This document shows positions 1-32,000 of a stretch of 32,000 nt of DNA, piece after piece. The first letter of the stretch is position 1. Every line of letters begins with the position of its first letter. Origin of the DNA: Candidatus Saccharimonadota bacterium. GTDB taxonomy: Bacteria > Patescibacteriota > Gracilibacteria > BD1-5 > UBA2023. Made by a program: the position numbers and the translations under genes. The notes beneath the pieces were generated by a model. That model had not been told where the DNA came from and searched no databases. It saw only the letters and a program-made list of their open reading frames with translations. The stretch is taken from assembly GCA_042852035.1 (NCBI GenBank), contig BAAFHK010000001.1, positions 540,001 to 572,000 of the forward strand. The letters run 5' to 3'.

Positions 1-1793
1 TTGCCAACCCAAATAAAAATGTCCGTGAACTCCCTCAAGAAATGTATATGGGTGTAGCACTGTTTCTCGCAGTTCCAGAAAAAGATGAAGATCGCCTCGC
101 ATTTGCCTTCAAGATCTACGATCAGTGCTCGACACAAAAAATCTCCCTCCCGACTCCAACCCTCATCAATGCACGTACCAATTTCTACCAGCTCACAAGC
201 TGTTTCAAGCTCAACGTCAATGATGATCTCCGCGCTATCTATCACTCAATCGAGAATATGGCGCAAATCTCAAAGTACGGAGGAGGTATAGGATCATACT
301 GGGGACATATCCGCTCTCGTGGATCATCAATCCGTGGTATCGATAATGCCTCAGCATGAGTCCTCCCGTGGCTCAAGGTCGTCAATGATACTGCCACAGC
401 CGTAAACCAACTTGGAGCTCGTCTCGGTGCTATATCTGTGACACTCGACGTCTGGCATCGTGATATCTATGACTTTCTGGATATGCAGACTGAGACGGGA
501 GATATCCGCTCGAAGGCATTTGATCTTTTTCCAGCGATTTCTATCCCAGACCTCTTCATGCGTCGTGTGGAAGAAGACGGAGAATGGACTCTCATGGATC
601 CGCATGAAGTGAATAATGTCTACGGTCGTCGCATCGAAGATACCTTCGGAACGGATTTCGAAATCTTCTATACTGATGCCGAAAAGAATCCAAAACTCAA
701 ACTCAATAAAGTCGTCAAAGCAAAAGATCTCTTCAAGACCTTCCTAAAGTCTACTGTAGAAACTGGTATGCCGTATGTCTTCTTTCGAGATACGGTCAAC
801 CGCCTCAATCCGAACAAACATGCAGGAAGTATCTATTCGACTCAGCTCTGTACCGAAATCTGTCAGAATTCATCACCAAGTGAATTTATCGAGGAGAAAA
901 ATGAAAATGGAGAAGTAACTCTTCGCTACAAGATGGGAGATACAGTTACTTGTAATCTTGCGTCTATTAACGTCGCAAAAGTAAATACCGTGAAAGATAT
1001 GGAAGAGACTGTACCGGTCATGATGCGCCTCCTCGACAATGTGGTATCGATCACAAAATATCCAATCAAAGAAGCAGAACGTACCAGTCTCCGCTATCGA
1101 CCTATCGCTATAGGGTACCTCGGACTCGCTGAGTACTTCGCGACTCACTCGATGGCATATGATTCACCAGAGGCTCGCCAAGTGGCAGATAAAATGTTCG
1201 AGGAATTCGCATGGCACGTCTATCGTACCTCTATCGATCTCGCGAAAGAGCGAGGAAAATACGACCTCTACGAAGGAAGTGAATTCGATAAAGGAATCCT
1301 CCTCGGTCACGATGAAGCATGGTTCACGAGCGAGACGACAATGAAGGATAAGTGGAAAGAAATCTTTAGCGATATGAAGCAGCATGGTGTCCGATTCGGC
1401 TATCACTTCGGTCCAGCTCCAAATACTTCTACCGCAGGTATCGTCGGAACAACCGCCGCCCTCCTCCCGATCTACAAGAAATACTTCGTCGAAACCAATC
1501 TTTCCTCTCCGACTATCCGCATCGCTCCGAAGCTCAATGCAGAAAACTTCTGGTACTATAAGGAGTATGTAAATATGGATATGAATGATGTCATCGATAT
1601 GATGTCTACTATCTATAAGTGGATCGACCAGTCTATCAGTTTTGAATGGATGATTGACCCAGCGAAGGTCTCTCCTCGCGAACTCTTCAGCTACTATATG
1701 AAGGCGTGGAAGCAAGGCGTGAAGACCGTCTACTATGTCCGCTCGCTCTCGAGTGAGGTCAGTAAGGATAATTGTGTGAGTTGTTCAGGATAG
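1..1793 (+). CDS. nrdA: Class I ribonucleotide reductase large (alpha) subunit. The 5' end lies outside the window; the first complete codon starts at 3.
   Basis: Track ORFs 42..359 and 438..1793 share a frame and are joined by a single in-frame TGA (357..359), read as ...RGIDNASA-G-VLPWLKVVND... Motifs KISLPTPTLINARTNFYQLTSCF, TQLCTEI and WIDQSISFEW are present, along with a C-terminal redox tail CVSCSG. The stop is TAG at 1791..1793. Confidence 0.9.
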
Positions 1794-1843
1794 AGAAAAA
1801 AAGAAAATTAAGAGTTATTAGAAGCATCAAGAGAAAACAAAAA

Positions 1844-1880
1844 TCCCTAACCTTCTAATGCAAGGTTGGGGATTTATTTA
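1844..1880 (+). terminator. Rho-independent terminator after nrdA
   Basis: The stem is 11 bp, tccctaacctt (1844..1854) pairing with aaggttgggga (1862..1872), with one G-U pair and a 7-nt loop. It is followed by tttattta. Confidence 0.65.
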
Positions 1881-1890
1881 AAAAAAACTT

Positions 1891-3294
1891 ATGGCTTATA
1901 AAAATTCTACTCAAACAACATTAGACTATATTGAAAAAATTGAAAATCATCTGAAAAGTGAGTCATATAAAAGTCAAATTTGATGACAAGATATTATAAC
2001 TCAATCAAGCTCTTATAAATATAATAATGAGCAAACACTTGGAGAATCCATAGAAATTATGCGAATTGGTTTCCAAAAGATTAAAGATAATATCAGCTTA
2101 TATGATCAATGAAATATAGATTATAAGAATAATATTAATAATACTTGTATAAATAATATTTTAGCATGGTTAGAATCAAGCCCTATTTCAAATTGGCAAA
2201 ATATTATTCAAAATATTAATAATTTTATAATGTATCTGGGATATATTTGAATCTTTATTGCTTCAGAATGAGGAAAAAATAAAGACTATAAATTATTCAA
2301 TAGAAGACTATCTCAAGCAGAAGACTTTGTTTCTAAAGTTACACAAGCGGAAACATTATACAAAAAATTAAAACCAATAAGTGAAGCAATTCCATCACTA
2401 GAAAGTATTCAGAATGCAAAAACAAATAGTGATGAAATTATCAGGCTACATGAAAATATCAAGGAATTAGAACAGTCTGCAACAGAAAGTAAGAGAAATA
2501 TAGAGGAAAATGCTAAATACGCTTGAATAATGCTCTGAAAAATAACTACTGACGTAGTAGGAAAATATTTTCAAAAACTAGCAGATGAATATAAAAAGTC
2601 TGTAGAATGAGACTGGACAACTGAATTGCTAGACATAACAAATAAAGACGGAACTACTTCTCGTACTTGGAAATTATGGAAATGGAAATATTGATTTATG
2701 AAAGGTTTTTTTAATTGGAATACCTACTATTTTGTTGCGTTATCTTTAGTTGCATTCAGCCTATATTTCATATTATTCTATTCTCAATCGATTGACTGTA
2801 AAACAAATCCATTAAGCTGATCTGGTCTTATTTTACAAAATATAAATGATTGTAAGAAAAAAGTTGAAATAGGATTAGCAGTAAACAATTATGATAAAAC
2901 TTTTATAAAAGATGTGGGCGCCGAAAATATTAATTGATGAATGATAGCACTCGAAATTGTTAAAATTATAAGCAATTGAATAATTCGACTTGTTTTATTG
3001 ATGCCATCTTTACTTTTGCTATGGTTTGTAATGCAAAACAGGAATGATAAAAATCGATTAAGAAAAACATACGAGTTTAGAGAAACCACTATTAATACTC
3101 TTCCTGGCCAACTAGAACAATTAAGACAACAATGAATTCCTTCTGAAAAGATATGAGATTTTTTGGCAGGGACACTAACTCAAATATATTCTGAGCCTCT
3201 AGATGAAAAAAAAGAATCCTGAGAGGGTTTAATAACCAATTTAAAAGATACTGCTGATATTATGCAAAAATGGAAAGATATATTTAAATCATAG
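1891..3294 (+). CDS. Hypothetical membrane protein, 467 aa. It has a helical N-terminal region, then TM segments (YYFVALSLVAFSLYFILFY and IIRLVLLMPSLLLLWFVM) that flank a two-Cys loop, then a helical tail.
   Basis: I read every codon from ATG 1891 to TAG 3292..3294. The frame holds no TAA or TAG and 16 in-frame TGA. The length is exactly 1404 nt. I recognise no family. Confidence 0.7.
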
Positions 3295-3316
3295 TGCCGT
3301 ACTAATTAATAATTTA

Positions 3317-3345
3317 AATCCACCTCCTCGGTGGATTTTTCTTTG
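3317..3345 (+). terminator. Rho-independent terminator (copy 1 of a repeated terminator module)
   Basis: aatccacc (3317..3324) pairs with ggtggatt (3330..3337) around the loop tcctc, followed by a T-run. Confidence 0.75.
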
Positions 3346-3365
3346 TTTTATTCTATACTCTCTTC

Positions 3366-3752
3366 ATGAATTCATTTTTCGACGAAGCTCGCATACTCGA
3401 TCTCCCACTCGGTGAATATGTCATATTCGGGAGTGGCCCTATGGTCGTACGAGGTATCAGAGAGGGGAGAGATATCGATATTATCGTGACTCATTCACTT
3501 TTCGAGAAACTTCGCGATAAGTACTCTAAGCATATCCATGATGAGAAACTCGAACTCGGGAAAATCGAACTCTCAGCAAAGTGTCTTGATTATAGCGATG
3601 ATGAAATACTTACTCTTATTTCGACAGCAGAACTTATAGAGTGACTCCCATTCGCAACTCTCGATGAGGTTATAAAATTCAAAAAACGACTCAATCGAGA
3701 GAAGGATAGAGTTGATATCGAACTTATAGAAACCTATAGAAAAAGTATATAA
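3366..3752 (+). CDS. Minimal nucleotidyltransferase-fold protein (pol-beta / MNT-like), 128 aa
   Basis: The motif FGSGPMVVRGIREGRDIDIIV matches the hG[GS]x9-13DhD nucleotidyltransferase signature. The C-terminal KKRLNREKDRVDIELI resembles the R-x-KD-x-x-D tail of small NTases. There is one in-frame TGA (3642) and the stop is TAA 3750..3752. Confidence 0.65.
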
Positions 3753-3801
3753 TCTGATTTTTTTGGTGGATTTTTTATTCTCGAAAAGTGATAAATATAT
3801 T

Positions 3802-3830
3802 TTGACAATCATAAGAAAAATGTATGATTG
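3802..3830 (+). promoter_or_regulatory. Sigma70-like promoter
   Basis: TTGACA lies at 3802..3807. The -10 is ambiguous: TATGAT at 3823..3828 gives a spacer of only 15 nt. The element is upstream of ATG 3855. Confidence 0.45.
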
Positions 3831-3854
3831 ATTATTATTTAACATAATACCAAT

Positions 3855-4535
3855 ATGTCTCTTTCAAAGGTTTCTCAGGTAGGATTTTATCCTCACGACG
3901 AAGTAAAAACAACTATCAATCCAAATTTTATCATCAAGGCTCACCCTGATGTCACTCCCCATAGAAAAGCACATAGAATACCTGAGGATGTGCTCCATCA
4001 TCGTATAGCAAATGCAAGAAATGGAACCCTCTGGAGAGTTGAGATTCCCAGAAGAATCGGAAAAAGACTCCTCATTGTCGATAGTAATCCAATGGCAGGG
4101 TATGAATATGATTATAAAAGAAGGCTCCATGCTGCCTGATGAAGACTTGGAGCACCGACAGTGATTGGTGTCTCACTCGAGAGACTCTATGCACTCCTTG
4201 ATCCCTATTTTGAGTGATACCCGCTTCTCTGACATGCTGTGGAAAGTATTGAGTCAACACGACTCTCGATTCCATGACGCACTCATTGAATTCTCAATAT
4301 CTGACTCAAAGACTATGATCACTGGAACAGTGTTCTAGACACGACTCAAAAATGATGAATCGTAACCTATGATGCGCTTTTGCGATGACTGCGAGATAAA
4401 AAACCCATAAATAATCCACTTTATACACCTGGTGATGCAGAAAATCCTATTATTAAGGATAGGCGTACAAACTGAAAAACAGGTAAAGCAGCGAGAAGCT
4501 CTGACAGGCTCGATCCTAGTATGAGACGAATATAA
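3855..4535 (+). CDS. Hypothetical protein, 226 aa when TGA is read as Gly
   Basis: I read every codon. The first 94 codons contain no TGA. A tandem TGA-TGA follows at 4137..4142, and nine more TGA occur before the first true stop, TAA 4533..4535, which abuts a terminator. An alternative overlapping ORF exists at 4129..4338 (see findings). Confidence 0.55.
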
Positions 4536-4559
4536 ATCCACTTCCTCGGTGGATTTTTT
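4535..4559 (+). terminator. Rho-independent terminator (copy 2 of the repeated module)
   Basis: aatccac (4535..4541) pairs with gtggatt (4549..4555) around the loop tcctc, followed by tttttt. It is nearly identical to the element at 3317..3345. Confidence 0.75.
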
Positions 4560-4589
4560 CTGATTCAAAACTTCTAGAAAAGAATATTG

Positions 4590-4621
4590 TTGACATTTAT
4601 ATTTTTTAATTAAAATATAAT
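4590..4621 (+). promoter_or_regulatory. Sigma70-like promoter, probably giving a leaderless mRNA
   Basis: TTGACA lies at 4590..4595. The -10 candidates are TAAAAT (4611..4616) and TATAAT (4616..4621). The ATG is at 4623. Confidence 0.6.
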
Positions 4622-4622
4622 A

Positions 4623-5066
4623 ATGAATTCAAGAAATTCGCATTTCATCCGTGCTGTTATCACGGGGACCATCATATCCCTCTCATGAAGTAATGCGCTC
4701 GCCACATGAACCGTAGAAAGTGTAGAAAAACTCCTCACAGAGCCATCCTCTAAGCTCCGTTATAGCGGATGGTCTGCCACTGAAGAAGAACTCATATTCC
4801 TAAGATCATATGCTAAAAGACTCTCAGAATCGACTGATAACAAGATCGTCTCCATGCAATCTATGTGAGTCTATAATGGCGGGAAGTTTCTCGTTATTCG
4901 AGGCGAGGTCTATTATTTTAAAAGAGATACCTCTACTGGTTTTTCCCTCACTCACCTAAAATGACTCAAAGAAAAAACAGTCATCTGAGCAAGAGCATAT
5001 ATGGAGTGAAGAATAATAGAACCAAGAAGACCAGGAAAAGTTACTCTCCCAGATAGAGTTCTGTAG
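4623..5066 (+). CDS. Small secreted hypothetical protein, 147 aa
   Basis: The N-terminus MNSRNSHFIRAVITGTIISLSGSNALA looks like a signal peptide. I read every codon; the frame holds six in-frame TGA and ends at TAG 5064..5066. Confidence 0.6.
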
Positions 5067-5192
5067 TTAAAGGTATGTCTTTTATGCATTCCCCATAACT
5101 TAGCATTCGAAATATTTCGTATTTTTTTGAAAGGATTAGACCTACCCAAACAGCGCAAAGCTTCAGCAATGAGTGTATCCCATGTTTAATAT

Positions 5193-5221
5193 TTGACATT
5201 ATAATAATTTAATTATTATAT
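5193..5221 (+). promoter_or_regulatory. Sigma70-like promoter
   Basis: TTGACA at 5193..5198 is followed by a 17-nt spacer and TTATAT at 5216..5221. Confidence 0.55.
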
Positions 5222-5242
5222 AAAATATATAATTTTTTCTTT

Positions 5243-5911
5243 ATGTCATTAGCACCATCTATTCCAGATCATATGGACCACCTCATGAGAGAGAGTGATA
5301 TCCTCAGTCCTCTAAAAGATACGTTCTGATTTGAGATATGAGAGTTTGGGAAACCACGCATAATCCCATGAAAACAGTACCAAGCCCGCGTAGACATACC
5401 ATTAAGATACCGAGGTGAGACAGCCACACTTATTACTCTCGCTTTTAAACCTGGAGACGGAACTGGGGATATGAGTACCTACAGAGAGTGACAACTTGAT
5501 ATACCGCTAGGATTTCGATTTCTTGAGAACCCTTCGAGGGTATACCCAAGGGCAAAAAATCTCGCAGATGGAAGCCCTCTTCCTATAGAGTGAATGATAC
5601 CACTATTTGTAACCAAAGTATGAGAAACGTGGATGATACCACACAATTCAACCTTGCTTGAATTGTGAATCGTATGAGAAAATGCAATTTGAATCATCTG
5701 AAAGATGCAAACATACTCAAGACCGAGTATTTTACTCACAGTTACCGGAGAATGAGAGGAGAGATATGGAGATCCTCATGCTATATTTTCTCCTCGAGAG
5801 CCATGAGTTGAGGATGGATATCAGGTGGCATGATTTATATCAGCAAATTCAAGACAATCCAAGGTATATGAACTTCTAAAAAATCAATGAAAGCTCCCTC
5901 CAAGTTACTAG
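5243..5911 (+). CDS. Hypothetical protein, 222 aa. The 3' end is uncertain.
   Basis: The frame from ATG 5243 stays open to TAG 5909..5911 and contains 14 TGA. Across roughly 5660..5880 all three forward frames are open, so the true C-terminus cannot be fixed by eye. Confidence 0.45.
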
Positions 5912-5970
5912 AATAAATATGCTTTTCTGAAATTAGTATTTCTTATCTTATATACTTTAGTGTTGTTACT

Positions 5971-6315
5971 ATGCTGTATTCAAAAACTCGATATACGCCT
6001 GCGGGGGAAGGGAGCTCATGAAGACTTGATCGCCCTGCTTCACAGGTTCCCAAAGGTTCAAGGGAAAAATGATGGGAAACGATTGAGGTTGCTCAAGCAC
6101 GAGTAAGAGATCTTACAAAAGAAGTCGCCTACAGAATGCGCGTAGTAGAAGGTCATTTTGATATTACAGAAGCTCACATGACACACGTAAAACTAGAGAC
6201 AACGAGAGGTGCTATAGAAAGAGTACGGAGATTAATTGGCTGAAGCTTTGCGAATCAAGTTCAATTCGCTCAGGAGCTCGCTCGACTAGGAAAACTCGAA
6301 AAAAATCTACCATAA
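5971..6315 (+). CDS. Hypothetical protein, 114 aa, predicted helical
   Basis: I read every codon from ATG 5971 to TAA 6313..6315. The frame contains three TGA. A possible -10, TATACT, lies at 5951..5956. Confidence 0.55.
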
Positions 6316-6339
6316 TCGCCATGTTGATGGTTTTTATAG

Positions 6340-6364
6340 CCTATCGTATTCGATAGGTTTTTTT
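6340..6364 (+). terminator. Rho-independent terminator
   Basis: cctatcg (6340..6346) pairs with cgatagg (6351..6357) around a 4-nt loop, followed by seven T. Confidence 0.8.
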
Positions 6365-6412
6365 GGGTGTACTATATATTTCTTGTGAATCATCAGACAT
6401 GAAAGAATACAT

Positions 6413-6440: not shown

Positions 6441-6447
6441 TATATTT

Positions 6448-7260: not shown

Positions 7261-7266
7261 GAAATA

Positions 7267-7365: not shown

Positions 7366-7803
7366 ATGGGCATTGGACTCGCAATTGGCCTTGCTCTGGA
7401 TTTCGGTGGACTCATCGGTCAGGGTGATGGCATCGGCGGTGATGGCGATGGAGAAAGCAGCTCGGGCAGCGGTGGTGACGGGGGGAGTTTTCTCTCCGAT
7501 GCCGCATCAATGCTCGGGGGGAGTGTTGACGAACGTCGGATGATCCGCATCCCGCTTCGGAAAATCCCTTACGCACTGAGGATGCTTCCCCTTGTCATGC
7601 CATCCTTGGCTCTCGCAGCTGAGAAATCTGGAGCGAAGGGATGGGGTGATCGTTGGGCCATCTACGTTGGGCCTATCTTCACCTTCGCGCTGTTCTATGT
7701 GACGATTGGTGGCTGCTTCGGTGGCTTCAACTGCTTTGCATGGGGTGGCGGACTCAAGCTCGGGAACATCGGTCTTGGTGTCCTCTTCCCGATCGGGAAA
7801 TAG
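7366..7803 (+). CDS. Glycine-rich (34 of 145 residues) small membrane protein, glycine-zipper-like, in a GC-rich compositional island
   Basis: The ORF is intact under the standard code. GAGGAG (7354..7359) sits 6 nt upstream of the ATG. Codon first positions are strongly enriched in G. The sequence runs MGIGLAIGLALDFGGLIG...IGGCFGGFNCFAWGGGLKLGNIGLGVLFPIGK. All 34 Gly codons are GGN and none is TGA. Confidence 0.6.
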   Translation: MGIGLAIGLALDFGGLIGQGDGIGGDGDGESSSGSGGDGGSFLSDAASMLGGSVDERRMIRIPLRKIPYALRMLPLVMPSLALAAEKSGAKGWGDRWAIYVGPIFTFALFYVTIGGCFGGFNCFAWGGGLKLGNIGLGVLFPIGK

Positions 7804-14144: not shown

Positions 14145-14615
14145 ATGCTTCAAATCGTACACAAAAAACTTCTCGTCGTCTGAATTATCTTTCTTTTAAG
14201 CTGGATTTTTTGAAGTTTTCTTATTCATAAATTCGAAGCCTGATATCCAATAGGAGAAAATTATTTTAATGCCTTCTACTTTACTGTTATAACAACCGCA
14301 ACCATCTGATTCTGAGATCTCGTTCCGATGACTGTAGCAGGGAAGTGGCTCACCATGGGATATGCCATATTCTATGTTCCTCTCTTTCTCTATGTAATGA
14401 CCCTCCTTTTTCAGTCAAATCTCCATAAACTCAGACAATCTGATGAAATTCTTCATAAAGAGATAACCGATGTGGAATCAGATGTTAATATTATTCTTGA
14501 TGGCATGAAGCAAGCTATAGAAGATACTTGATGAGTCGAGCCATGAAACACCGGAGAGCCAAAACACCATCATAAGAAACCACGAAAAAGAAAACTTATT
14601 GCAAAAAGTGAGTAG
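14145..14615 (+). CDS. Minimal two-TM potassium channel (KcsA-like pore), 156 aa with a basic C-terminal tail
   Basis: The selectivity filter TTATIGFGD lies at 14292..14318, and both filter glycines are encoded by TGA (14307, 14313). TM helices flank the filter. The frame includes track ORF 14328..14531 and ends at TAG 14613..14615. Confidence 0.8.
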
Positions 14616-15085: not shown

Positions 15086-15134
15086 ATACTATATCTTGTA
15101 CCTCATATACTAACTCATACACTATATGTCGACA
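15086..15134 (+). promoter_or_regulatory. Two candidate NrdR-box-like half-palindromes
   Basis: atactatatcttgtac (15086..15101) matches the remembered consensus acaCwAtATaTwGtgt at 12 of 16 positions. acactatatgtcgaca (15119..15134) matches perfectly in the left half and weakly in the right, and it overlaps the nrdB ATG. The two starts are 33 nt apart. Confidence 0.3.
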
Positions 15135-16181
15135 CAAGATGCGAAAATTATCGATAAAAATCTCATATTTAATCCTCTCGGAAATGATGATGTCGGGGCA
15201 CGTACGATTATCAAATGAGCCACAACAGGACTTTTTAATCTCAATGCAGTAAAGTATCAGTGGGCAAAAAGTCTCTATCAGGTTATGGTAGGAAATTTTT
15301 GGGTCCCAGAAAAAGTAAGCGGACTCAAAGATGATGCTCGGGATTTTTCAACCACACTTACTCCTGATGAGCAAAGGGCCTACAAAGGGATTCTTTCATT
15401 TCTCGTGTTTCTCGACTCAATTCAGACGGTAAATCTTCCGAATTTTAATGACTATATTACGAGCCCTGAGGTGAATCTTATTCTTTCCATACAAGCCTAC
15501 CAAGAAGCCATCCACAGTCAATCATATGCAACTATTCTTGAAAGCGTAGTAAGTATGGAAGAGCGCAATGAAATTTATTATTTTTGGAAAAATGATGAAA
15601 CCCTTCTTGAGAGAAATAAATACATTGGTCAGATCTACCAAGACTTTATCGACACTCCCACAGATTATAATTTTTTCCGAGGAATAGTTGCAAATTTTCT
15701 TCTGGAATCTCTCTACTTCTATAATGGCTTCGCATTTTTTGATACTCTTGTAGATCACATGAAAATGCCAGCAACTGGTCGTATGATTGCTTATATTCGA
15801 CGTGATGAGCTTACTCATGTAACTATTTTTGCAAATATTATAAAAGAAATTAAACGAGAATTCCCCGAGGTTTATAATGAATCTCTCATCCTCGACATGA
15901 TGCGTACTGCAGTTGACCAAGAAATCAAATGGTCAAAGCATATTCTCGGAAATCGTATCCCAGGAATTAATGGAGAAACAACCGAAGAATATACAAAATG
16001 GCTCGCCAATCAGCGACTCTCAATGCTTGGTCTCGAACCACTCTATCCTGATGCTATAAGCAACCCATATAAACATCTTGATCGCCTTCAGGATCCAAAT
16101 GCTGATAAAGGAAACTTCTTTGAGACAACCGTTATCAATTACACTCAGAGTTCAAGTATGGCAGGAAGTTGGGATTTTTAG
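15126..16181 (+). CDS. nrdB: Class I ribonucleotide reductase small (beta) subunit, 351 aa
   Basis: Track ORF 15285..16181 extends upstream through one TGA (15216) to ATG 15126. Ferritin-like di-iron motifs are visible (...LDSIQT..., QEAIHSQSY, ESLYFYNGFAFF, IRRDELTHV), and the C-terminal tail is ...SSSMAGSWDF. Confidence 0.9.
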
Positions 16182-16184
16182 ACG

Positions 16185-17198
16185 ATGGAAAAACCTCAAC
16201 TCCACATTCCAAAAAATACAATTCCTCTTCTTATAGAAGAAATTTGCAAAGAGGAATGACTCGACTACTGGATTGAGCCAGAGTATAAATATTTTTGATA
16301 TGTAGAAACTGAAAGAGGACGAAGATTTTTTAAGAATTGGCACATAAACCAAAATCCTCTTGCCTCAATTGAGGTATGTAAAGATAAAGACTACTCAGCC
16401 CAGGCGCTTTCACGATTTTGATTTCTTGTTCCTGAGGGGAAGGTATTTTTTAGTGAAGAAGTAAACCTAAAAATCGAGAAAAAACGTACCTATGAGGATG
16501 CTCAAATTTACTGATTATCTCTCGGTTTCCCACTCATTATAAAACCCAATAATCTCTCTCAATGAGCTTGAGTATTTAAGGCAAATACCAAGGAAGAATT
16601 CCTCGATGCCCTTTCTCGAATGAGAGAATACAGTCATGCCTATCGAGTAGAACGATTTTATAGCGGAAGAGACTACCGTATCGTAGTATATGACGAAAAG
16701 ATTATATCAGCCTATGAACGAATTGCTCTTTCTGTAATCGGTAACTGAAGGGATACTATCGGTGACCTTATACAAAAAAAACAAGATGAATTTTTCAAGA
16801 TTGGAAGACCGGAAGTAATTGATATGTGAGATATTCGTATACTCAAAAAGCTTTCAAATATAGGATGTAGCTTCGATACTGTTCTTCCGGATAGGGAAAA
16901 AATATCCCTTCTTGATAATGCTAACCTTTCAACAGGATGAGAAAGCAAGGACATAACACCCTTGCTTCACCAAGACTTTGCTGATATCGCGATACGAGCA
17001 ACAAAATCACTCAATCTAGAGCTCTGTGGCGTAGATATCATTACTGGTGACGCTACAAAATCACTTGAGGATAATATGAATGAATATATTATACTCGAAG
17101 TAAATGCTTCACCCTGACTTGATAACTATATAACCTCTGGGAATACGCAGAGAAATATCGTAAAATCTATGTATCGGAAAATGCTTTTACTAGAATAG
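16185..17198 (+). CDS. ATP-grasp ligase, 337 aa (cyanophycin-synthetase / RimK / glutathione-synthetase-like fold)
   Basis: The ATG lies 3 nt after the nrdB stop. Motifs include GFPLIIKPNNLSQGAGVF, NLSTGGESKDIT and CGVDII...YIILEVNASPGL. I read codons across the start and the first 180 nt, then followed the frame to TAG 17196..17198. Confidence 0.7.
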
Positions 17199-17673
17199 TT
17201 CGTGGATCCGTTCTTCTTAATGCAAGGCTGCAAGCAACAATAGTTCAAGACATAATTGATGATGATATATTTTTTATTCCTCAAACTTTTGGACTTGAGT
17301 GAAAGTAATTTCACTCAGAATCCATAAATATACCAACATGAGAAATCATTTGAGCTTTATGTGCTAGGGATTTTCTATGAAAAAAAACTAGGTCCCCCAT
17401 CTCATGCTCATCGAGAGGAATGAGTCGAGCTCATGCAACTCAGCCATAAATCATGCTATGAATAAAATCACCGATATATGCATATGGAATAAAAAAACCG
17501 GTACTTTTCTCTATCATATATCTAACAGCCGTAATACAATGTGTCACTCATGGTGCATCTTCATAAGTGGCATCAAGTGCGTAATGAGTTCCACATAAAT
17601 CAGAATGTGCTTGATTGAATTTTTCAGCATTAAAACGAAGATCTTCAAATCGAAGTGCAATAAATTGTGACAT
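17167..17673 (-). CDS. NlpC/P60 (C40) family peptidase-like protein, 168 aa
   Basis: I translated the reverse complement by hand. SDLCGTH, GDLVFF, SHVGIF and YFHSS match the usual NlpC/P60 Cys ... GDLxFF ... HVGIY ... xH pattern. The stop (TAG on the minus strand) lies at 17167..17169, inside the end of the ATP-grasp gene. Confidence 0.6.
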
Positions 17674-18061: not shown

Positions 18062-20062
<2,001 letters not shown>

Positions 20063-20071
<9 letters not shown>

Positions 20072-20092
20072 TCCCAATTGGGATTATTTTTT
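20063..20092. terminator. Bidirectional terminator shared by the convergent lepA and RNB genes
   Basis: The palindrome aatccc-aatt-gggatt (20070..20085) is flanked by an A-run upstream and a T-run downstream. Confidence 0.7.
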
Positions 20093-21605
20093 ATTTGAGA
20101 TAGTAATCAAAGATTTTTCCTATCAGTTCTCTTCGTACGATTCACTGAATTCTCGTAGCCTCATGTCGATGCCAATACTTCTTGGTTACTTGAAGGACAT
20201 GACCGTCAGGAAGCCTTACTTGTGCTGTGATTTTTTCTGCATTAATTTTCTGTCGAAAATCGAAAACTATCGGTCAACCGAGCACGATACGGGTTTGAGC
20301 AAGAGAATTAAGAAAAGAAAGTGGTGCCATAGCTCCATTCTCGAGTACTTGTTTGCGTAAGCTCTCCTTTATTGTTCGATCATTTCATAGAATTATAATT
20401 CATACCGCCCAGTGCCACATATTTGAATCTGGATTTTCGAGATCAGCCAGAATATATTTCCTAAGTTCCGAGGGAAGTTCATATGTTTTTCCGAGAGTGA
20501 GACGGAGTTGTTGCTTGAAATCATGCGTCGCTGGATCACGGTCAAAATTCTTTCGAACTCGCTCGACGCTCCTCTTTCATTTCGCCTCATGATCATAGTA
20601 TGCATTGAGGATATCTACTTCGAAAATTCTTCGATTAATATAATCAATCATAACTTCAATATGCTCAGGAGTGAGCTCGTATCATTGTTTTCTTATAAGT
20701 GCTTTCAGAAGGCGATGTACTATGACATCTGGATATCGCCTGAGCGGGGAAGTGAAGTGGGTATATGCTCAGGTCTTTTTGATCCTCAGTCATTCATGCC
20801 TCCCGGGATTGAGGGTATAAAATGCTCGTTCTCTTAGATCATGGTGCTGACGAAATATACCAGCTCATGACCCCTTCAAGACTTGTGCAACAATTTGGTT
20901 TGTGGTGACCATGAGCACTTCGATAACACGGTGAACATTCATGCCTTCTCATGAGAGAAGCATCAGCGGTGAAGAAGCATTTTCTTGAATTCATTCCTCT
21001 CAGAGATCAAAACCTTTCTGATTTCGAATTCTATTGGCAACTGTCTCGAGTTCTACGAATTGCGAATGTTGTCGATATCCTCTCGTTTTTACTCATTCAC
21101 TAAATTCATCATGGGTAAACTTCCCTCGATGAGTGAGAAGCGATTCGTAAATATCAAATCGTGTTACCCGACCATTTTTATCAATATCAAACTCTACTGT
21201 AATCGAAATATGTTTTCGTTTTCCATTGAGTGAATAACGCTCATTCGAGAGGTCGAATGGAAGCATAGGAATTACCCCATTTTCTCTATAGAGACTGGTA
21301 CTCCTCATCAGTGCTTCGAGATCAAGGGGGCTAAAAACCTCAATTGCTTCGGTAACATCAGTAATAGAGACATACACCCGATGACCTCATCTAAATTTCT
21401 CTACCCAGACGGCATCATCCGCATCGAGTGTTGTTGACCCATCAATCGTAATACCATCGACATTTCTTCTTCGTACTGCCTGATCTCGTATTCCTCTGAG
21501 GATTTGCTCAGTTTGAGTAGCTACTTGGTTGCTAAAAAAGAGTTTTGGTTCATTCGTTCGTAAATGCTCGCTGAGTTCGAGGGGTGATAGAATTCACTCT
21601 TGCAT
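20091..21605 (-). CDS. RNB-domain 3'-5' exoribonuclease (RNase II/R family), short form of 504 aa
   Basis: Minus-strand hand translation shows DADDAVWV, VIPMLPFDLSNERYSL and YTHFTSPLRRYPDVIVHR (the last at 20727..20759). The start (21605), track ORF 21093..21377 and the stop (20091..20093) all share one frame. Confidence 0.8.
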
Positions 21606-21694: not shown

Positions 21695-22543
21695 ATGTCT
21701 GAAATTTTTAACACCCTATCGAACATCATACATCTCGAACTCCCGCTCCTTACAGCTATCATGGTTTGAATACTGGTAGAAGTGGTATCGCGACGTATAA
21801 AATCTCGCCTCAAAAAATCAATATTTTCTGAGTATGAAAACTCAATTGATCCAGAGCATGCAGAATATTACTTAAGCTATTATAGAAAAATTCAATCTCT
21901 TGATATTTTTCGTGCCCTCTCATTTCTCGCGGTTTTGTTCATAATTTTTACTTTCAAGACCTGAGGAAGTATTAATTTTCTGGTCGTCGGTCTTGGTGCA
22001 CTCATCGTCACAATGAAGGACTTCCTTCTATCTGTAGTTGCTTTTTTTCTCATTATTCGACGATATAAAATAGGCGAAACAATCGGAATTAATGATATAC
22101 AAGGCCAAATCATTTATATTCGTGTACTCGGTGTAGGAATACTCGGAAAAGATAATGATGGGGACAATACGGGTCGAATGTTTGTGATTCCAAGTTTCAA
22201 GTTTCTTACTGAAACTATTAAAAAAGAAGATCTGCATGCTGATAGTATTAGAAAAGAGATTCTTAAAATTCCTTATATAACAAATGAATTTGAGCCCGAT
22301 TTTGCAACATTTATTCGCTCTCTTGAGAACTTTCTGGATAATGAACTCAAGACGCTCTCAAAACGAAATTGTGGAAATTACCAGACTTATATCGGACATA
22401 AGTATAAATTAGATATCGATTATCTCGAAGATAAAGCCATAATAATTACCGTTGGCCTCGTCGGAAAGTGGGAAAATACAGTAGAAAATAAGAAAAAAAT
22501 AGTTTGATTTGTTGAGTCTCTGAAAAGAGTTCCGAAGGAATAG
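21695..22543 (+). CDS. MscS-family mechanosensitive channel, 282 aa
   Basis: TM helices are followed by KDFLLSVVAFFLIIRRYKIGETIGINDIQGQIIYIRVLGVGIL...MFVIPSFKF, which is the MscS beta-domain pattern. The frame joins track ORFs 21782..21964 and 22013..22507 and ends at TAG 22541..22543. Confidence 0.7.
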
Positions 22544-22563: not shown

Positions 22564-23469
22564 ATGCGACATATACTCTCAAGCAAACAATTCTCACGCA
22601 AAGCTCTCGAGTATCTTATGTCAGAAGCTCAAAAAATGGACGAAATTCTCATAAAATGAGGAAGTCGCATGTTTGATGAACGTATTATGGCAACCCTCTT
22701 TTATGAACCATCAACTCGTACACGGCTTTCATTCGAGACATCGATGCATCGACTTGGAGGTCGGGTAATATCTGAAACTGATGTTCAGTTCTCAAGTCAA
22801 TCAAAAGGAGAGGTACTTGCTGATACGATTCGAATTGTATCGTCGTATGCTGATATTATCGCAATACGATCAAAAAATACTGGCGATGCAGAGATAGCAA
22901 GCAAATATTCCCAAGTGCCCATAATCAATGCCTGAGATGGTTCCTGAGAACATCCCACACAATCACTCTTAGATCTTTATACAATTACAAAGTCTTTTCC
23001 TCAAATTTTTCTCGACCAACCACTTCATGTCACATTTGTTTGAGACCTTAGATATGGAAGAACGGTTCATTCTCTCTCTATTCTTCTGAGAAATTTCCCG
23101 AAAGTAGAACTCTCATTTATAGCTCCGCAAGATCTCAATCTTCCCGAAAATTATAGGAGAGATTCTGATTTCTTTTCGAGCGAACTTTCATTAGAACTCC
23201 TCTCCTCAAGTGATGTCATATATATGACCCGAGTACAAAAAGAACGATTTCCAAATCAGGAGTCCTATGAAGCAGTCAAAGATAGTTTTATTTTTGATGA
23301 AGCTACGGTAAAGAAAATGAAAAGCGATGCCATACTTATGCACCCTCTCCCGCGCGTAAATGAAATCACTCTCGAGGTCGATAATCTCCCACAAGCAAAA
23401 TATTTCGAACAAGCAAAGAATGGAGTTCCAATTCGAATGGCACTTATAAAATATTGTCTTGAAGGATAA
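22564..23469 (+). CDS. pyrB: Aspartate carbamoyltransferase catalytic subunit, 301 aa
   Basis: Motifs are STRTRLSFE, INA-G-DGS-G-EHPTQSLLDL, FV-G-DLRYGRTVHS and HPLPR. The marked glycines are TGA at 22933, 22945 and 23041. Confidence 0.92.
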
Positions 23470-23544: not shown

Positions 23545-23982
23545 ATGGCAGAACGATCACTTATTATTCTTAAACCTGATACTATTCACCGAGGACTTAT
23601 TGGAGCTGTAACAACTCGTATTGAAAATCGAGGATTTAAGATTGTTGCAATGAAGATGGCGAAGGTTACTCAAGCAAAGCTTGATGAGCACTATGGTCAC
23701 CTTACCTCAAAGCCATTTTACCCTGAGATTGTTGCCTATATGACAATGGGGCCTGTAGTATTCATGATTGTTGAAGGAGACAATGCAGTCAACGGTATGC
23801 GCCAACTTTGTGGTGCCACAGATCCAGCTCAAGCAGCTATGGGCACTGTACGTGCTGATTTCGCTACAACCATACGATACAACCTTATCCACGCATCTGA
23901 CTCAGTAGAAAATGCAACTGCTGAAATCGCACGATTCTTCGATGAGTCTGAGATTTGTGGATACGAGAGAAAAGTAATTTAA
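23545..23982 (+). CDS. ndk: Nucleoside diphosphate kinase, 145 aa
   Basis: The ORF is intact under the standard code. Motifs include LIILKPD, GFKIVAMK and NLIHASDS (active-site His region). It contains no TGA. Confidence 0.9.
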   Translation: MAERSLIILKPDTIHRGLIGAVTTRIENRGFKIVAMKMAKVTQAKLDEHYGHLTSKPFYPEIVAYMTMGPVVFMIVEGDNAVNGMRQLCGATDPAQAAMGTVRADFATTIRYNLIHASDSVENATAEIARFFDESEICGYERKVI

Positions 23983-24124: not shown

Positions 24125-25102
24125 ATGCGATCCTCTAATAATTACTCCATCTCTCACTTTTCGGTATATTGCGACGAGCGTGAAACCCGAAGAGTCGATA
24201 CCTATCTGTCAGCTCTTTTTCCAGAAAAATCAAGAAGTTACCTTCAGAAAATGATTGAGGAAGGCAAGATTTTTTGTAATGGAGCAAACTTCACGAAGAA
24301 TAAAAAAATCTACCGATGAGATGAAATTCGTATCGAATGGAAAATAGAAAATATGGAACTTCTAGCAGAAAACCTTCCAATCGATATCATCTTTGAAAAT
24401 GATGATTTTGCAATTATAAATAAGGATGCTGGGATGAATACGCACCCAACACCTGGGGAAGAATGAAGAAAGGGAAGTCTCGTGAATGCTCTCCTCTACC
24501 ACTTTAAATCACTCTGAATACGTACCGATGATGGTGAATACAAAAATCCATCTATTATTAATGGGGTAGAGCGACCAGGGATCGTTCATCGCCTCGACAA
24601 GGATACGAGTGGACTTATTATCATAGCTAAAAATGATAAAGCAATGCATGCACTCCAGCTTAAGATAGCAAAACGCACTATCTCTAAAACGTATCTTGCT
24701 CTTGTTTTTTGAAGAGTGAAGGATGAAGAATGATACATCGAGTCTTTCATCTGAAGGGACCCCTTTGATCGAAAAAAAATGACCACCCGAGATCCGGTAA
24801 ATCCAAAAATCGCTAAAACAAAGTTTCGAAAACTTGGCTATCACCATGAAAAATATACACTCCTAGAAATAGATCTTCTGACGGGTCGCACACACCAGAT
24901 TCGTGTTCATCTTTCATCAATTGGATTTCCAATCGTTGGAGACAAAATATATGGAAATGAAAAAATAAATAGGGAAGTGGAGGAACATTATGCACTTAAA
25001 AGACAATGGCTTCATGCGTGGAAGCTTTCATTCAATCTTTTTTGAAAGGATTACACATTCGAATGACCCATTAAAGATGATTTACAAAAAGTAATCGACT
25101 AG
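24125..25102 (+). CDS. rluD: RluA/RluD-family 23S rRNA pseudouridine synthase with an N-terminal S4-like region, 325 aa
   Basis: Motifs are [15 protein letters not shown] and [12 protein letters not shown]. The frame joins track ORFs 24125..24319 and 24779..25045 through TGA and ends at TAG 25100..25102. Confidence 0.85.
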
Positions 25103-25149: not shown

Positions 25150-25521
25150 ATGAATTTACGACAATCAAGACTTGCTGATGCAATAAGAAGGTATGCGAGC
25201 GAAGATATACTCACATATTCACAAATACACGAACATAGTTATGGAATAATTAGCGTAAACACTGTAGAGGTGAGTACTGATTATAGTTATGCTGATATCT
25301 TTGTTTCTTCACAGGAAAACGAAAAAAATCTCCCAAAATTTCTTTCACCAACTGAATTAATTACCAAAAAAAGAATAACAAAAGATTTCTCTCTCAGAAA
25401 AATACCTCAGCTCAGATACCGGGTGGGAAAAAAGAAAAACAATTCAAACGATATTCTTTCACTTATACAGTCTCTCGATAAACAATATGGCCTTTCTAGC
25501 GAAAATTCGCAATTCCATTAA
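25150..25521 (+). CDS. rbfA: Ribosome-binding factor A-like protein, 123 aa
   Basis: The size and pattern fit RbfA: (R)LADAIRR...ISVNTVEVSTDYSYADIFVS...LRKIPQLRY. It contains no TGA. Confidence 0.6.
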   Translation: MNLRQSRLADAIRRYASEDILTYSQIHEHSYGIISVNTVEVSTDYSYADIFVSSQENEKNLPKFLSPTELITKKRITKDFSLRKIPQLRYRVGKKKNNSNDILSLIQSLDKQYGLSSENSQFH

Positions 25522-26545
25522 AAAACGAAAGAATAAAACCTTTCGAGAATCCATAGAAGGCGAACGAAGTCAAAAATATCTTATAAAAGATCATATTAAA
25601 GAACCTCGGAGAAAGAAATGGAGCTTCTTTCGTAAAGAATGAAATCGCCTTTCCCCATTTTCACGATTTCTCGGGGAAAAAATACAAATTACCCAAGATT
25701 TTTCCCAAAGACAACAATTTTATCTCAAGTCTATTGGAATATTTCTAATACTTGCATCAACTTATATTCTTATTTATTCACCGTATTTTCTTCTTTCCCC
25801 ATCGAAAGTCCTTATCGAAGCCGTTGATGAATGAATCGATGTTTCAATTGCTTACAGATCAATAGAGGATTTTTATGGGAAAAATATATTTACCCTTGAT
25901 GAAAATGCCGTTATTTATTCCATAAAATCGAGTCAGAAAAATATTTCCCAAATACGTATTGATAAGCTTTATCCAAATAATATTAAAATTCTTCTTGAAT
26001 GATACCCTATTACTTTTACGGCTGATATTGAATCTGTCGGTGATAGAAAATGGGGAATGAGTGAAAATGGAATACTGATACCCAGCGAAGATCTTTCTTG
26101 AGAAAAGACATGATTGAAGCATGTACACATCGTCGACTTCGCCCTCAATGAAGACAGCCTTATTGACTATAGAGAGATAATCCCTGCCGATTATATACAA
26201 CTCATGAAAAAAATGATTTCATGATTTGAGTCCGCATGGCCAGAACTAGAAATCGAGGAGATTATATACCGCAAAAGAGAAAATGAAGTTCATATAAAAC
26301 TCAAAAATAAAACAATTATACTCACAACTCTTCAAGATTTCACAAGAAAGACGGGTGAGGTTATTACCTATAAGCAACTTACCCTCCAATTTCTCAATCT
26401 TCAAACCTTTATTGAGAATCACAGACAAGATATACTTAACTGATCTTACACCTATATTGATTCACGAATTCCATGAAGAATATTTTCATGTAGAGACCGT
26501 ATTATCTGCGAAAAGAATCTTGCATTTATTTATCCTAATAAGTAA
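25487..26545 (+). CDS. ftsQ: FtsQ/DivIB-like cell division protein, 352 aa
   Basis: It has a basic N-terminal tail, a single TM helix (SIGIFLILASTYILIYSPYFLL) and a POTRA-like region (VLIEAVDEGIDVS...IRIDKLYPNNIKILLEGYP). It overlaps rbfA by 35 nt. The stop is TAA 26543..26545. Confidence 0.5.
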
Positions 26546-26547: not shown

Positions 26548-27189
26548 ATGAAGCACGAATTTTCCAAAATTATAGAAATAGTCTACAAGCTCTATTGAGG
26601 GAAAAAAATAGAACTGAATTATGAAACCCCCTTTCAGCTTCTTTGTGCCATCATACTTTCAGCACAAACAACTGATAAACAAGTAAATAAAATCACTCCT
26701 CCATTTTTTCAAATTGTTCGCAATCCTGAAGATGTCATTCCTCTTTCGCTTGATGAAATAGAAAACCATCTCAAATACGTAAACTTTTATAAAAATAAAT
26801 CAAGCTATATAAAACAAACCTGAGAGATTCTTGCCAGGGAATACCAAAGCACTATACCCAATGATCTAAAACTCATTCAAACATTTCCAGGTATAGGCGT
26901 AAAAACAGCAAAGGTTCTTCTTTCTGTACTCTACGATATGCCTTATGTATGAGTAGATACTCATATTCATCGAGTCATGAATCGCATCGGGATTGTCGAG
27001 ACAAAAACCCCTGAGCAGACCGATAAAAGGATTGAAGAGATTTTTACAAAGAAGGAACAACTCATTCTCCATCATCCATTTGTACTTTTTTGAAGGTATC
27101 ACTGCACAGCGAAAAAACCAAAATGTGAGTCTTGTCCCATAAAAAAAGAATGTGCCTATTATAGGACACATTCTTTCAATTCTTTATAA
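26548..27189 (+). CDS. nth: Endonuclease III, 213 aa
   Basis: Motifs are ILSAQTTDKQVN, the HhH element FPGIGVKTAKVLL, GVDTHIHRV and the 4Fe-4S cluster C-x6-C-x2-C-x5-C (CTAKKPKCESCPIKKEC). The stop is TAA 27187..27189. Confidence 0.9.
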
Positions 27190-30100: not shown

Positions 30101-32000
30101 ATGTTACAAGCTGGTGTAGTAGTAAGATTTGGGGAGTTGTTCCAGAGGACAAAAGTAGTTGAATACGGAGCAATAGTAATAGGCCAGCTTGTCGTAGCAT
30201 TAAGTCAATCAACATAAGCGAAGCACTGTGCTCCTCCTGGACAAGATTGGGTTGCTGGAGTTCCCGTAGAATTTGAATATGCTAGCACTTCGTATGTATT
30301 TGTATTTTTTACATGCGTAGAGAGTCTGTGTAGAGTTACCTCATCAATCTCATATGAGATATCGTTATTGGAAGTTTCAAGAGTCAATTGAGCATCAGCT
30401 GCTGTTGTAGTTGCGGTAATATAGAAAGAAAATACTTGGCCCGTAGAACTCGCATATGTTTCAGCGATTCTGTCTGAATAAACTACAGATTTATCAGCTG
30501 ATGAATGAAGAAAGGCACGGAGATTAATTTGTCCAGAATTTGATTTTGCATATCCAGTTACATGAAAGACTTGTCCAGAAGTAATGGAAAGAATTGCATC
30601 ATTCGTAACCCAGATTCTATCTGGAGACCCTCAAGCTGGCGTAACCGTTGCAGATCAACCAACATTACTTCCAACTGCATTATAACTGATTCAAGGAGCA
30701 CTTCATGTGAGAGCAGAAACACTCCAATTTGAGGCATCTACTGAGAAATCACCATTAGTAATAAGATTTGATGTAGCATAGGTTCCGGTATTAACATATG
30801 GCTTATATCCAAAATACTCAAATTTCGTAATATTCGGATCGAGTTGATTGAGTGCAGCCTTTGTATATTCAACTACCTCTCCTCAAAATTTTACCGTTCT
30901 TGCATATGATGCATTTGGTTTATAGTTTGGAAAAATACTATTGGCATCAAATGTAGAAAATCCACTGACAACACCAGCCCCTGGAACCTCATCACGCATT
31001 TCAATATATGGATAATCTGGAGCCCTTTGAATAAAGGTATTTCCTGTAAAACTATTATTTTGTGTTGCTCAGCTATTATTTTGTATTAGAGAAAGTGTAT
31101 TTATGCGAGATGACAGAAGCATATTCTGAGAAACGGATGAATTTGACGTATCCACCATTCTTACTGCATATTGAGCATTTTGAATTCCATTCTTTATCAC
31201 TGAAAGTCCACTTATTCACTGAGCCAATACTCAGGCATTTTCGCTAGCAGCAATTCAGGTTCCTACATCCCTGATACTATTTTCAGTAAGAGAACTTGTA
31301 ACAGCTCCTATTGTCGAAGAGCTATTTCGAATCGCGGCACACTCAGTAGATCAAGTTGTACAAACGGTACTAATATTATTTCTCATTACATCAGTATCAG
31401 ATCAATAAAGAATAGCGCTTTCTGCAATATTAGTCATTGTATTATATGATACATCTACCGGGTAACTACTCAACACATTAATACCATCACCCGTAATTGA
31501 AGAAATTATATTATTCGAAATAGTTGTAAGTGATCATGAAACGCTCAGAGCTCCAAGACAGTTGGAAATAGTATTGCCATCGATAAGCACTCATGAGGAA
31601 GAATTCACAGCTGCACATGTTGCATTTGCTCATGAAATAGTAGAATTCATGACAGTAATATTGCTTGAAGTATCAATATCAACTATTGATCCAGGGAGAG
31701 AATCTGATACATCAATACCACTAATCACAACATAGCTTGATCCAATAATATTCACTCATTCTACAGTAGCAGTATCGGAAGGACACCCACCATAACTATT
31801 GATTGTTATTGGAAGTCAGACGGATCATGGGAGACTGCTGAGATTTAAAGACTCAGCCCAAGATGCACTACACAAAAGAGATACCGTATCACCCTGAAGA
31901 AGTGGAGTACCGTTAACTTTTGCGAGGGTTTGCCAGGCAGTCGTTGGAGAGAGTCCATCATTTCCATCATTCCCAGAAACAGCATCTACATAGTACTGTG
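27184..32000 (-). CDS. Giant surface/adhesin-like protein, at least 1604 aa. The N-terminus lies beyond the window edge.
   Basis: Track minus-strand ORFs ending at 27531, 29634 and 30387 share one frame and are linked by TGA. Hand translation reads [28 protein letters not shown] plus N-x-[ST]-I repeats (parallel beta-helix), then [12 protein letters not shown] (CBM-like), then repeated ...NDAP/NDTP...YTP...DSFTF units, then an acidic tail ...[27 protein letters not shown]. The stop is TAA 27184..27186. Confidence 0.75.
28100..29880 (-). repeat. About six tandem cadherin/Ig-like domain repeats of roughly 93-95 aa (period about 275-285 nt) inside the giant CDS
   Basis: Recurring plus-strand strings, such as gtgaaactatc and its variants, occur near 28250, 28535, 28815, 29090 and 29660. 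The ND[AT]P boundary motif recurs near 28190, 28465, 28745, 29025, 29300 and 29585. Confidence 0.6.

Follow-up and report, generated by a model that had tools for sequence, protein, structure and literature searches.

The 32,000-nucleotide stretch of DNA analysed here (hereafter the window) raises the question of how the codon TGA is read in its genes. Under the standard code (code 11) only 20 open reading frames in the window reach 100 aa or more, and the longest has 451 aa. When only TAA and TAG are treated as stops, 27 genes are obtained and 91.9% of the window is covered (Table 1). An initial annotation, made from the letters alone, had called the standard-code reading frames misleading and had predicted about 27 contiguous genes with TGA as glycine, and both points were borne out.

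TGA codons within the genes

The 27 genes have 9,797 internal codons, among which there are no TAA, no TAG and 253 TGA codons. The per-codon frequencies expected from base composition are 0.032 for TAA, 0.018 for TAG and 0.018 for TGA, and TGA was observed at 0.026. TAA or TAG closes every one of the 27 genes and none needs TGA as a stop, meaning that in-frame UGA is read as sense and only UAA and UAG serve as stops. Cutting the genes at TGA breaks them into 280 segments with a median length of 21 codons. Pfam domains nevertheless run continuously over TGA codons in NrdA, NrdB, LepA, aspartate carbamoyltransferase (ATCase), the RNB protein, RluD, Nth, the Ion_trans_2 channel and others.

Table 1. 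Genes of the window when only TAA and TAG are read as stops.
Feature	Coordinates	Strand	TGA codons	Evidence and remarks
nrdA, class I ribonucleotide reductase alpha	3..1793	+	1	Pfam Ribonuc_red_lgC 1.3e-142; N-terminus cut by window edge
Seven ORFans	1891-3294, 3366-3752, 3855-4535, 4623-5066, 5243-5911, 5971-6315, 6448-7260	+		Frames open only with TGA as sense
Gly-rich 145-aa gene (HHAS10_05380)	7366..7803	+	0	Exact match to NCBI GAB0174659.1
Four ORFans	7920-8831, 8950-9459, 9466-10389, 10522-14085	+		
Two-TM K+ channel	14145..14615	+		Pfam Ion_trans_2 5.3e-12
nrdB, ribonucleotide reductase beta	15126..16181	+	1	Pfam Ribonuc_red_sm 1e-73
ATP-grasp (RimK-like) enzyme	16185..17198	+	10	Pfam RimK 8.7e-12
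NlpC/P60 peptidase	17167..17673	-	6	Pfam NLPC_P60 1e-5
lepA (EF4)	18104..20071	+	12	Pfam, PDB alignments, codon alignment
RNB-domain exoribonuclease	20091..21605	-	15	Pfam RNB 6.5e-52
MscS-like membrane protein	21695..22543	+	3	Weak Pfam MS_channel_2nd match, below gathering score
pyrB, aspartate carbamoyltransferase	22564..23469	+	4	Pfam, PDB alignment; identical to GAB0174673.1
ndk	23545..23982	+	0	Pfam NDK 1.3e-52
rluD-type pseudouridine synthase	24125..25102	+	8	Pfam
rbfA	25150..25521	+	0	Pfam RBFA
FtsQ-like protein	25487..26545	+	8	Weak Pfam POTRA_1 match; start codon uncertain
nth, endonuclease III	26548..27189	+	4	Pfam, PDB alignment; identical to GAB0174678.1
Giant surface protein, at least 1,605 aa	27184..31998	-	52	Pfam Big_9 1e-68, Cadherin_5, Cadherin_4, Beta_helix

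The seven ORFans upstream of the Gly-rich gene gave no Pfam matches, and 14-58% of their Gly codons are TGA; the product of 3366-3752 matches phrog_12854, a family of unknown function. The product of 10522-14085 is 1,187 aa long with 31 TGA codons and carries internal repeats (D1, D5 and D12). The giant surface protein, whose N-terminus lies outside the window, is built of beta-helix, Big_9 and cadherin-like repeats.

Residues opposite TGA

When the gene products were aligned with their best PDB homologues, the kind of family alignment that the initial annotation had proposed, glycine was found at 17 of the 29 alignable TGA positions and tryptophan at none (P = 5e-13 at a 7% background). The other 12 positions face K, R, N, S, P, C, A, T or V; these are variable or small-residue columns, compatible with glycine but not site-by-site proof of it. 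Among the Gly-facing codons are those in the PyrB motifs INAG-D and FVG-DLRYGR, in VE-G-A of LepA and in A-G-V(L/I)P of NrdA, the latter being the sole TGA of nrdA (357), where 7agj and 5im3 have Gly. Likewise, 7ail and 6zjk have Gly at the position of the nrdB TGA. The K+ channel filter T-I-G-F-G-D (TxGxGD) is written ACC ATC TGA TTC TGA GAT (14301-14318), and its two TGA codons (14307 and 14313) align with the glycines of the K2P and TOK channel filters. Every TGA that had been cited at first for this filter, for lepA (18386, 18593), for pyrB (22933, 22945, 23041) and for nrdA is indeed in frame. Four TGA codons of the rluD-type gene could be aligned to E. coli RluD, three of them opposite Gly, and those of nth face G, A, C and P.

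The window lepA was also aligned by codon with 27 lepA genes of Gracilibacteria type and 34 that use the standard code. The picture was similar, with 8 of the 12 window TGA columns being majority Gly in the 34 outgroups. At the 25 columns where Gly reaches at least 90% in these outgroups, the 28 Gracilibacteria-type genes have either GGN (628) or TGA (72) and nothing else, and at a given column TGA in one relative can be GGN in another, but never TGG. For the RNB protein, 107 distant homologues were compared, of which 106 have Gly opposite the TGA at residue 202 and 97 each opposite those at residues 272 and 402. The UGA columns thus correspond to glycine in standard-code homologues at the PDB sites as well as in the LepA and RNB columns.

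Amino-acid composition points the same way, being normal only if TGA is glycine: Gly content goes from 4.35% to 6.96% once TGA is counted, and Trp content is 0.84% but would rise to an implausible 3.45% if TGA were Trp. The six conserved Trp columns of NrdA are all TGG. As judged from these comparisons of sequence, UGA acts as sense and specifies glycine instead of tryptophan, which is still encoded by UGG. An additional reassignment of CGG and CGA to Trp was considered and rejected, as CGG encodes the invariant Arg in STRTR of PyrB and ERERGIT of LepA and CGA is a common codon.

Uneven use of TGA and a glycine-rich gene

TGA is used unevenly, as the initial annotation had remarked for ndk, rbfA, nrdA and nrdB. 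Its share of Gly codons is 1/32 in nrdA, 1/17 in nrdB, 0/10 in ndk and 0/3 in rbfA, compared to 253/674 overall (pooled P = 1.5e-10). In accessory genes TGA accounts for 2.6-6.3% of codons, rather than the roughly 3-9% first estimated. G+C content was rejected as the cause of the unevenness, since non-Gly GC3 and TGA share are not significantly correlated (Spearman rho -0.19, p = 0.34).

The gene at 7366-7803 lies in an island of 57.5% G+C and has 34 GGN and no TGA among its Gly codons. It has its own promoter, Shine-Dalgarno motif and terminator; no other gene of the window shows a clear Shine-Dalgarno motif. Counterparts of this gene in two relatives (L082 and L083) also avoid TGA (0/32 and 1/36). 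The G+C-rich segment 7300-7850 was considered as a structured RNA, a candidate dropped given the 145-aa ORF, the Shine-Dalgarno motif and the protein homologues; Rfam gave no match over the whole window at gathering scores and none in 7100-8100 at E<=1. A contig search returned just a 2.5-kb Logan contig for ndk and none for HHAS10_05380. It is conceivable, although rather doubtful, that TGA is a second-class Gly codon that selection has removed from strongly expressed genes, an idea suggested by the near lack of TGA in nrdA, nrdB and ndk and by a Gly-rich gene without any. A bolder version would hold that TGA-free genes with a Shine-Dalgarno motif may stay expressible by standard-code bacteria, for instance the Zoogloea host.

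The placement of terminators directly after TAA and TAG stops, also claimed at the outset, held in part. The four best hairpins on the + strand (3316, 4534, 6338 and 7835) start at most about 32 nt past such a stop, but terminator-like hairpins are no commoner than in shuffled sequence (12 versus 9.9+/-3.0 and 7 versus 8.9+/-3.0).

Source genome, alternative readings and known codes

Translated with TGA as Gly, PyrB, the K+ channel and Nth are identical residue for residue to NCBI GAB0174673, GAB0174664 and GAB0174678 of the metagenome-assembled genome (MAG) HHAS10, and the ndk product matches GAB0174674.1 exactly, as does the Gly-rich protein its own entry. The public NCBI record of HHAS10 therefore already carries TGA = Gly proteins, and the matched proteins lie on a 750,307-bp contig of this 1.3-Mb MAG (PMC9530719). 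HHAS10 is the published genome of a Gracilibacteria-type symbiont from activated sludge and has been classified as JAEDAM01 (PMC11393006). The closest lepA loci are those of Candidatus Gracilibacteria MAGs and, along with the exact protein matches, place the window in the Gracilibacteria/Absconditabacteria/JAEDAM01 radiation. Its source is an uncultured Patescibacteria/CPR bacterium of class JAEDAM01, earlier counted within Gracilibacteria/BD1-5 (NCBI 'Candidatus Altimarinota', taxid 363464). We conclude that the window is almost certainly a chromosomal segment of HHAS10 that uses translation table 25, with UGA as Gly and only UAA and UAG as stops; columns, composition and protein identity all support the code 25 assignment with which the initial annotation began.

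Three other readings were weighed against table 25. The short ORFs under code 11 might suggest that TGA is a stop after all, and that the genes are pseudogenes, contain sequencing errors or carry programmed read-through or selenocysteine sites; in a Logan assembly of the same locus, pyrB indeed appears as 88- and 81-aa pieces. Such a reading is extremely improbable, however, as TAA and TAG are missing from all in-frame codons while TGA is at or above its compositional expectation, full-length Pfam domains extend over TGAs, TGA ends no gene and the same pattern recurs in 23 of 27 independent lepA genes of Gracilibacteria type. For selenocysteine in particular, 253 sites are far too many and Cys lies opposite only 1 of the 29 alignable sites. 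It seems just as remote that the window belongs not to a cellular chromosome but to a phage or mobile element that has a recoding of its own. The 12-kb block at 1891-14085 does consist of ORFans only, but a PHROGs search of it found no phage structural or replication families and lends no support to a prophage, since its one match is to a family of unknown function. Moreover, the content of the window is cellular housekeeping (nrdAB, lepA, pyrB, ndk, rbfA, rluD, nth, an RNase and an FtsQ-like gene), and the sequence sits within a 750-kb contig.

The reading of TGA as Trp (code 4), known from Mycoplasma, Spiroplasma and some insect endosymbionts, has in its favor that TGA is plainly sense, that the genome is A+T-rich and that database copies of related proteins show W at TGA positions. 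However, of 107 distant homologues, 97-106 carry Gly where these copies show W, and the W residues are thus artefacts of code 4 gene calling. Trp was found neither at the 29 PDB-aligned sites nor at any of 51 LepA TGA columns, the LepA outgroups lack Trp at every TGA column, TGA is swapped with GGN and never TGG, Trp content would be excessive and the deposited proteins of the source genome have Gly. Taken together, code 4 can hardly apply to this window.

With table 25 as the preferred reading, one would expect a dedicated tRNA-Gly (anticodon UCA) that decodes UGA and the loss of release factor 2, as suggested by the literature and a relative. An ARAGORN scan found no tRNA gene in the window, and the 28 Gracilibacteria-type lepA loci gave tRNAs for Gln, Lys and His only. 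The TGA-recoded related contig L082 has, at 7092-7170, a tRNA with anticodon UCA and G1:C72, C2:G71, G3:C70 and U73, the Gly identity criteria applied in PMC8629427; the same study used the absence of prfB (RF2) as a criterion for Gracilibacteria.

That TGA is Gly here is correct but already known. Table 25, the Candidate Division SR1 and Gracilibacteria code, has been known since 2013 (Campbell et al. 2013; Rinke et al. 2013; both cited in PMC8629427). For a BD1-5 bacterium, proteomics then proved that UGA is read as Gly (Hanke et al. 2014, PMC4032931), and the reassignment was reported by Codetta for c__JAEDAM01 including HHAS10 by the authors of that MAG (Fujii et al. 2024, PMC11393006), so that scientifically nothing is new. 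In practice, because UGA is Gly, standard-code callers fragment the genes of the window and code 4 callers place Trp for Gly, and table 25 must be applied, or gene calling, domain scanning and homology searches on it go wrong. Public resources show both errors, with pyrB fragmented under code 11 and relatives stored with Trp under code 4.

Compared to known systems, the window resembles table 25 genomes in having sense TGA at conserved Gly columns that swaps with GGN in relatives, TAA and TAG as sole stops, UGG as Trp, an A+T-rich CPR genome and Gracilibacteria MAGs as nearest relatives. There is no difference of substance, except that the GTDB class is now JAEDAM01 rather than Gracilibacteria proper. 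Absconditabacteria differ in that CGA and CGG have been proposed to encode Trp there (PMC8629427), whereas both are Arg in the window. The table 4 genomes of Mycoplasma and Spiroplasma share the reassigned codon and an A+T-rich reduced genome, and ORFs come out full length when gene callers fall back to code 4, but UGA is Trp in those genomes while the TGA columns of the window are Gly and never Trp.

UGA as a sense codon

In this window (G+C 37.7%), UGA is a sense codon and UAA and UAG are the sole stops. Under the bacterial standard code the window yields no more than 20 ORFs of 100 aa or longer, with a maximum of 451 aa, whereas stopping at TAA and TAG alone gives frames of up to 1,191 and 1,605 codons and 27 genes, all 27 ending in TAA or TAG, that occupy 91.9% of the window. 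The initial annotation, which had called the standard-code ORF track misleading and had proposed about 27 contiguous genes, is borne out on both points. The 9,797 internal codons of these genes include 253 TGA and no TAA or TAG; base composition would predict 0.032 TAA, 0.018 TAG and 0.018 TGA per codon, and TGA is observed at 0.026. Treated as a stop, TGA splits the 27 genes into 280 pieces, whose median length is 21 codons. Pfam domains extend unbroken across the TGAs in NrdA, NrdB, LepA/EF4, aspartate carbamoyltransferase, an RNB nuclease, an RluD-type pseudouridine synthase, endonuclease III and a giant Big_9/cadherin-like surface protein, and those of the Ion_trans_2 channel, an ATP-grasp enzyme, NlpC/P60, Ndk and RbfA are likewise unbroken when TGA is read as sense.

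Glycine opposite TGA

UGA encodes glycine and UGG still encodes tryptophan. The TGA codons quoted in the initial annotation for the K+ channel, lepA, pyrB and nrdA are all in frame, and when the proteins were translated with TGA as X and aligned to solved structures, the best structure per protein had glycine at 17 of 29 alignable sites (P = 5e-13 at a 7% glycine background) and tryptophan at none, the alignment with homologous glycines which that annotation had expected.

Coordinates and features of TGA sites and other elements (window positions unless a contig is named)
Feature	Position	Strand	Details
K+ channel	14301-14318		ACC ATC TGA TTC TGA GAT; TGAs are both selectivity-filter glycines (T-I-x-F-x-D vs T-I/V-G-Y/F-G)
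LepA	TGA at 18386, 18593		7/12 TGA sites Gly in EF4 of Aquifex and of E. coli alike; 2 further sites Gly in E. coli EF4; last 3 in variable or inserted segments
PyrB	TGA at 22933, 22945, 23041		2 sites opposite invariant Gly (INA-G-D, FV-G-DLRYGR); 1 site opposite Asn; 1 site within a variable segment
NrdA	TGA at 357		sole TGA opposite Gly in two structures
NrdB			sole TGA opposite Gly in two structures
RluD			TGA sites opposite G, G, G, S
Nth			TGA sites opposite G, A, C, P
HHAS10_05380	ORF 7366-7803 in region 7267-7852	+	145-aa glycine-rich membrane-like protein
nrdA-nrdB gap	1794-15125		13.3 kb
Intergenic gap	14616-15125		510 nt, upstream of nrdB
Intergenic gap	17674-18103		430 nt, upstream of lepA
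Terminator hairpins	3311-3340; 4529-4558		93% identical, AAATCCAC(C/T)TCCTCGGTGGATTTTT
tRNA, anticodon UCA (ARAGORN label SeC)	7092-7170 of contig L082	-	G1:C72, C2:G71, G3:C70, discriminator U73, encoded CCA

The closest lepA genes, when one genome was scanned per species, were from Candidatus Gracilibacteria MAGs. In-frame TGAs, 1-14 per gene, occur in 23 of 27 lepA genes of this type, and no gene of the 27 has an in-frame TAA or TAG. We aligned the codons of these 27 and the window's lepA with 34 standard-code outgroups. The outgroups are majority glycine at 8 of the window's 12 TGA columns, and relatives use GGN or TGA at 9. Where the outgroups are 90% glycine or more (25 columns), every codon of the 28 Gracilibacteria-type genes is GGN (628) or TGA (72), and across the 51 columns with any TGA, the other residues of these genes are 75% glycine, with no tryptophan. 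Three TGA columns of the RNB protein are glycine in 97-106 of 107 distant homologues.

Code 4, in which TGA is tryptophan, is contradicted by every one of these column tests; it would raise the tryptophan content of the window genes from 0.84% to 3.45%, whereas reading TGA as glycine takes glycine from 4.35% to 6.96%, and every conserved tryptophan column of NrdA is TGG. Selenocysteine fails too, the sites being too numerous and just one of them lying opposite cysteine. Pseudogenes or read-through at TGA do not fit the complete absence of in-frame TAA and TAG, and a recoded phage is refuted by the gene content and by the window's place in a 750-kb chromosomal contig.

Uneven TGA use and gene signals

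TGA makes up 37.5% of glycine codons overall, and its use is indeed uneven, as the initial annotation had noted: ndk (0/10 glycine codons) and rbfA (0/3) have none, nrdA (1/32, P = 6e-6) and nrdB (1/17) one each, and the ORFans 30-63%, save one small gene at 1/7. The 3-9% of codons claimed for accessory genes was measured as 2.6-6.3%, and third-position G+C does not account for the unevenness (rho -0.19, p = 0.34). Terminators had been placed right after stops; this holds for the four best plus-strand hairpins, at most about 32 nt past TAA or TAG, while terminator-like hairpins showed no overall enrichment in the window. Two near-identical hairpins come after the stop codons of separate ORFan genes, suggesting that a terminator module was duplicated or reused. 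Shine-Dalgarno-like motifs lie within 16 nt upstream of 2 of 25 gene starts inside the window, and most upstream regions are A+T-rich and lack one.

The sole clear Shine-Dalgarno motif belongs to HHAS10_05380, which also has a near-consensus promoter (TTGACA-16-TATTAT) and a strong terminator. This gene sits in a 57.5% G+C island (GC3 0.60 vs 0.18-0.37 in most sampled neighbours and 0.49 in nrdA), and its 34 glycine codons are all GGN, with no TGA (P about 1e-7). No Pfam family matches the product, and the protein database yielded only 7 homologues. Two of these were examined: both come from TGA-recoded contigs, share the arrangement of promoter, 5' UTR and Shine-Dalgarno motif, and likewise make little or no use of TGA (0/32 and 1/36). 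In a relative's contig (L083, 1584-2231), the glycine-rich gene has TGA at the exact site of another relative's TAA stop, and glycine there would lengthen the product by 67 residues.

The genes nrdA and nrdB are adjacent as a rule; here the interval between them holds the K+ channel and 12 genes without a Pfam match, of which one is the glycine-rich gene and another matches a PHROG of unassigned function. No signature of a phage or of a transposase turned up in this interval. The two long intergenic gaps gave no Rfam match; judging by the NCBI protein numbering, the stretch from the K+ channel to pyrB has two small CDSs more than the 27-gene list, possibly located in the gaps.

Decoding and the published record

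UGA would be read by a dedicated tRNA-Gly(UCA) and RF2 would have been lost, the two criteria applied to Gracilibacteria by the Codetta authors (PMC8629427). No tRNA genes were found in the window. The tRNA(UCA) of L082, a JGI metagenome contig with in-frame TGAs in 8 of 9 other genes checked and a homologue of HHAS10_05380, is a tRNA-Gly(UCA) because its first three acceptor pairs and U73 form the glycine identity set. It lies about 650 nt downstream of the glycine-rich gene homologue and adjoins a tRNA-Arg(GCG).

The HHAS10_05380 product is 100% identical to GAB0174659.1, 'hypothetical protein HHAS10_05380 [Candidatus Altimarinota bacterium]', encoded on a 750,307-bp contig. With TGA read as Gly, the PyrB, K+ channel and Nth sequences match GAB0174673.1, GAB0174664.1 and GAB0174678.1, from the record that also has GAB0174659.1, exactly over their full length, and therefore the depositors already used table 25 on this genome; Ndk matches GAB0174674.1. 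The initial annotation was correct in both observation and interpretation, and what remains is the practical value of reading the window with table 25 and a small side observation, the TGA-free genes. In a large protein database, relatives of the RNB protein from this lineage (P0001-P0013) are stored in code 4, with tryptophan where distant homologues have invariant glycine, and in a Logan assembly that covers the same locus, code-11 gene calls break pyrB into 88- and 81-aa fragments.

Taxid 363464 is Candidatus Altimarinota, and the Codetta paper lists the same taxid as Gracilibacteria (PMC8629427). HHAS10 is an activated-sludge MAG of 1.3 Mb in 3 contigs (PMC9530719), later assigned to class JAEDAM01 and seen by FISH amid Zoogloea cells (PMC11393006). 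UGA = glycine is textbook knowledge in this lineage, and for the HHAS10 genome it is already in print: the reassignment was predicted for the radiation in 2013, proteomics confirmed it in 2014, with 97 peptides unique to the glycine translation vs 3 to the tryptophan translation (PMC4032931), and Codetta gives it in c__JAEDAM01 MAGs, HHAS10 included (PMC11393006). A further change of CGA/CGG to tryptophan has been proposed in Absconditabacteria (PMC8629427). Invariant arginines in PyrB and LepA are written CGG, and therefore that reassignment is ruled out here; the window keeps both CGG and CGA as arginine.
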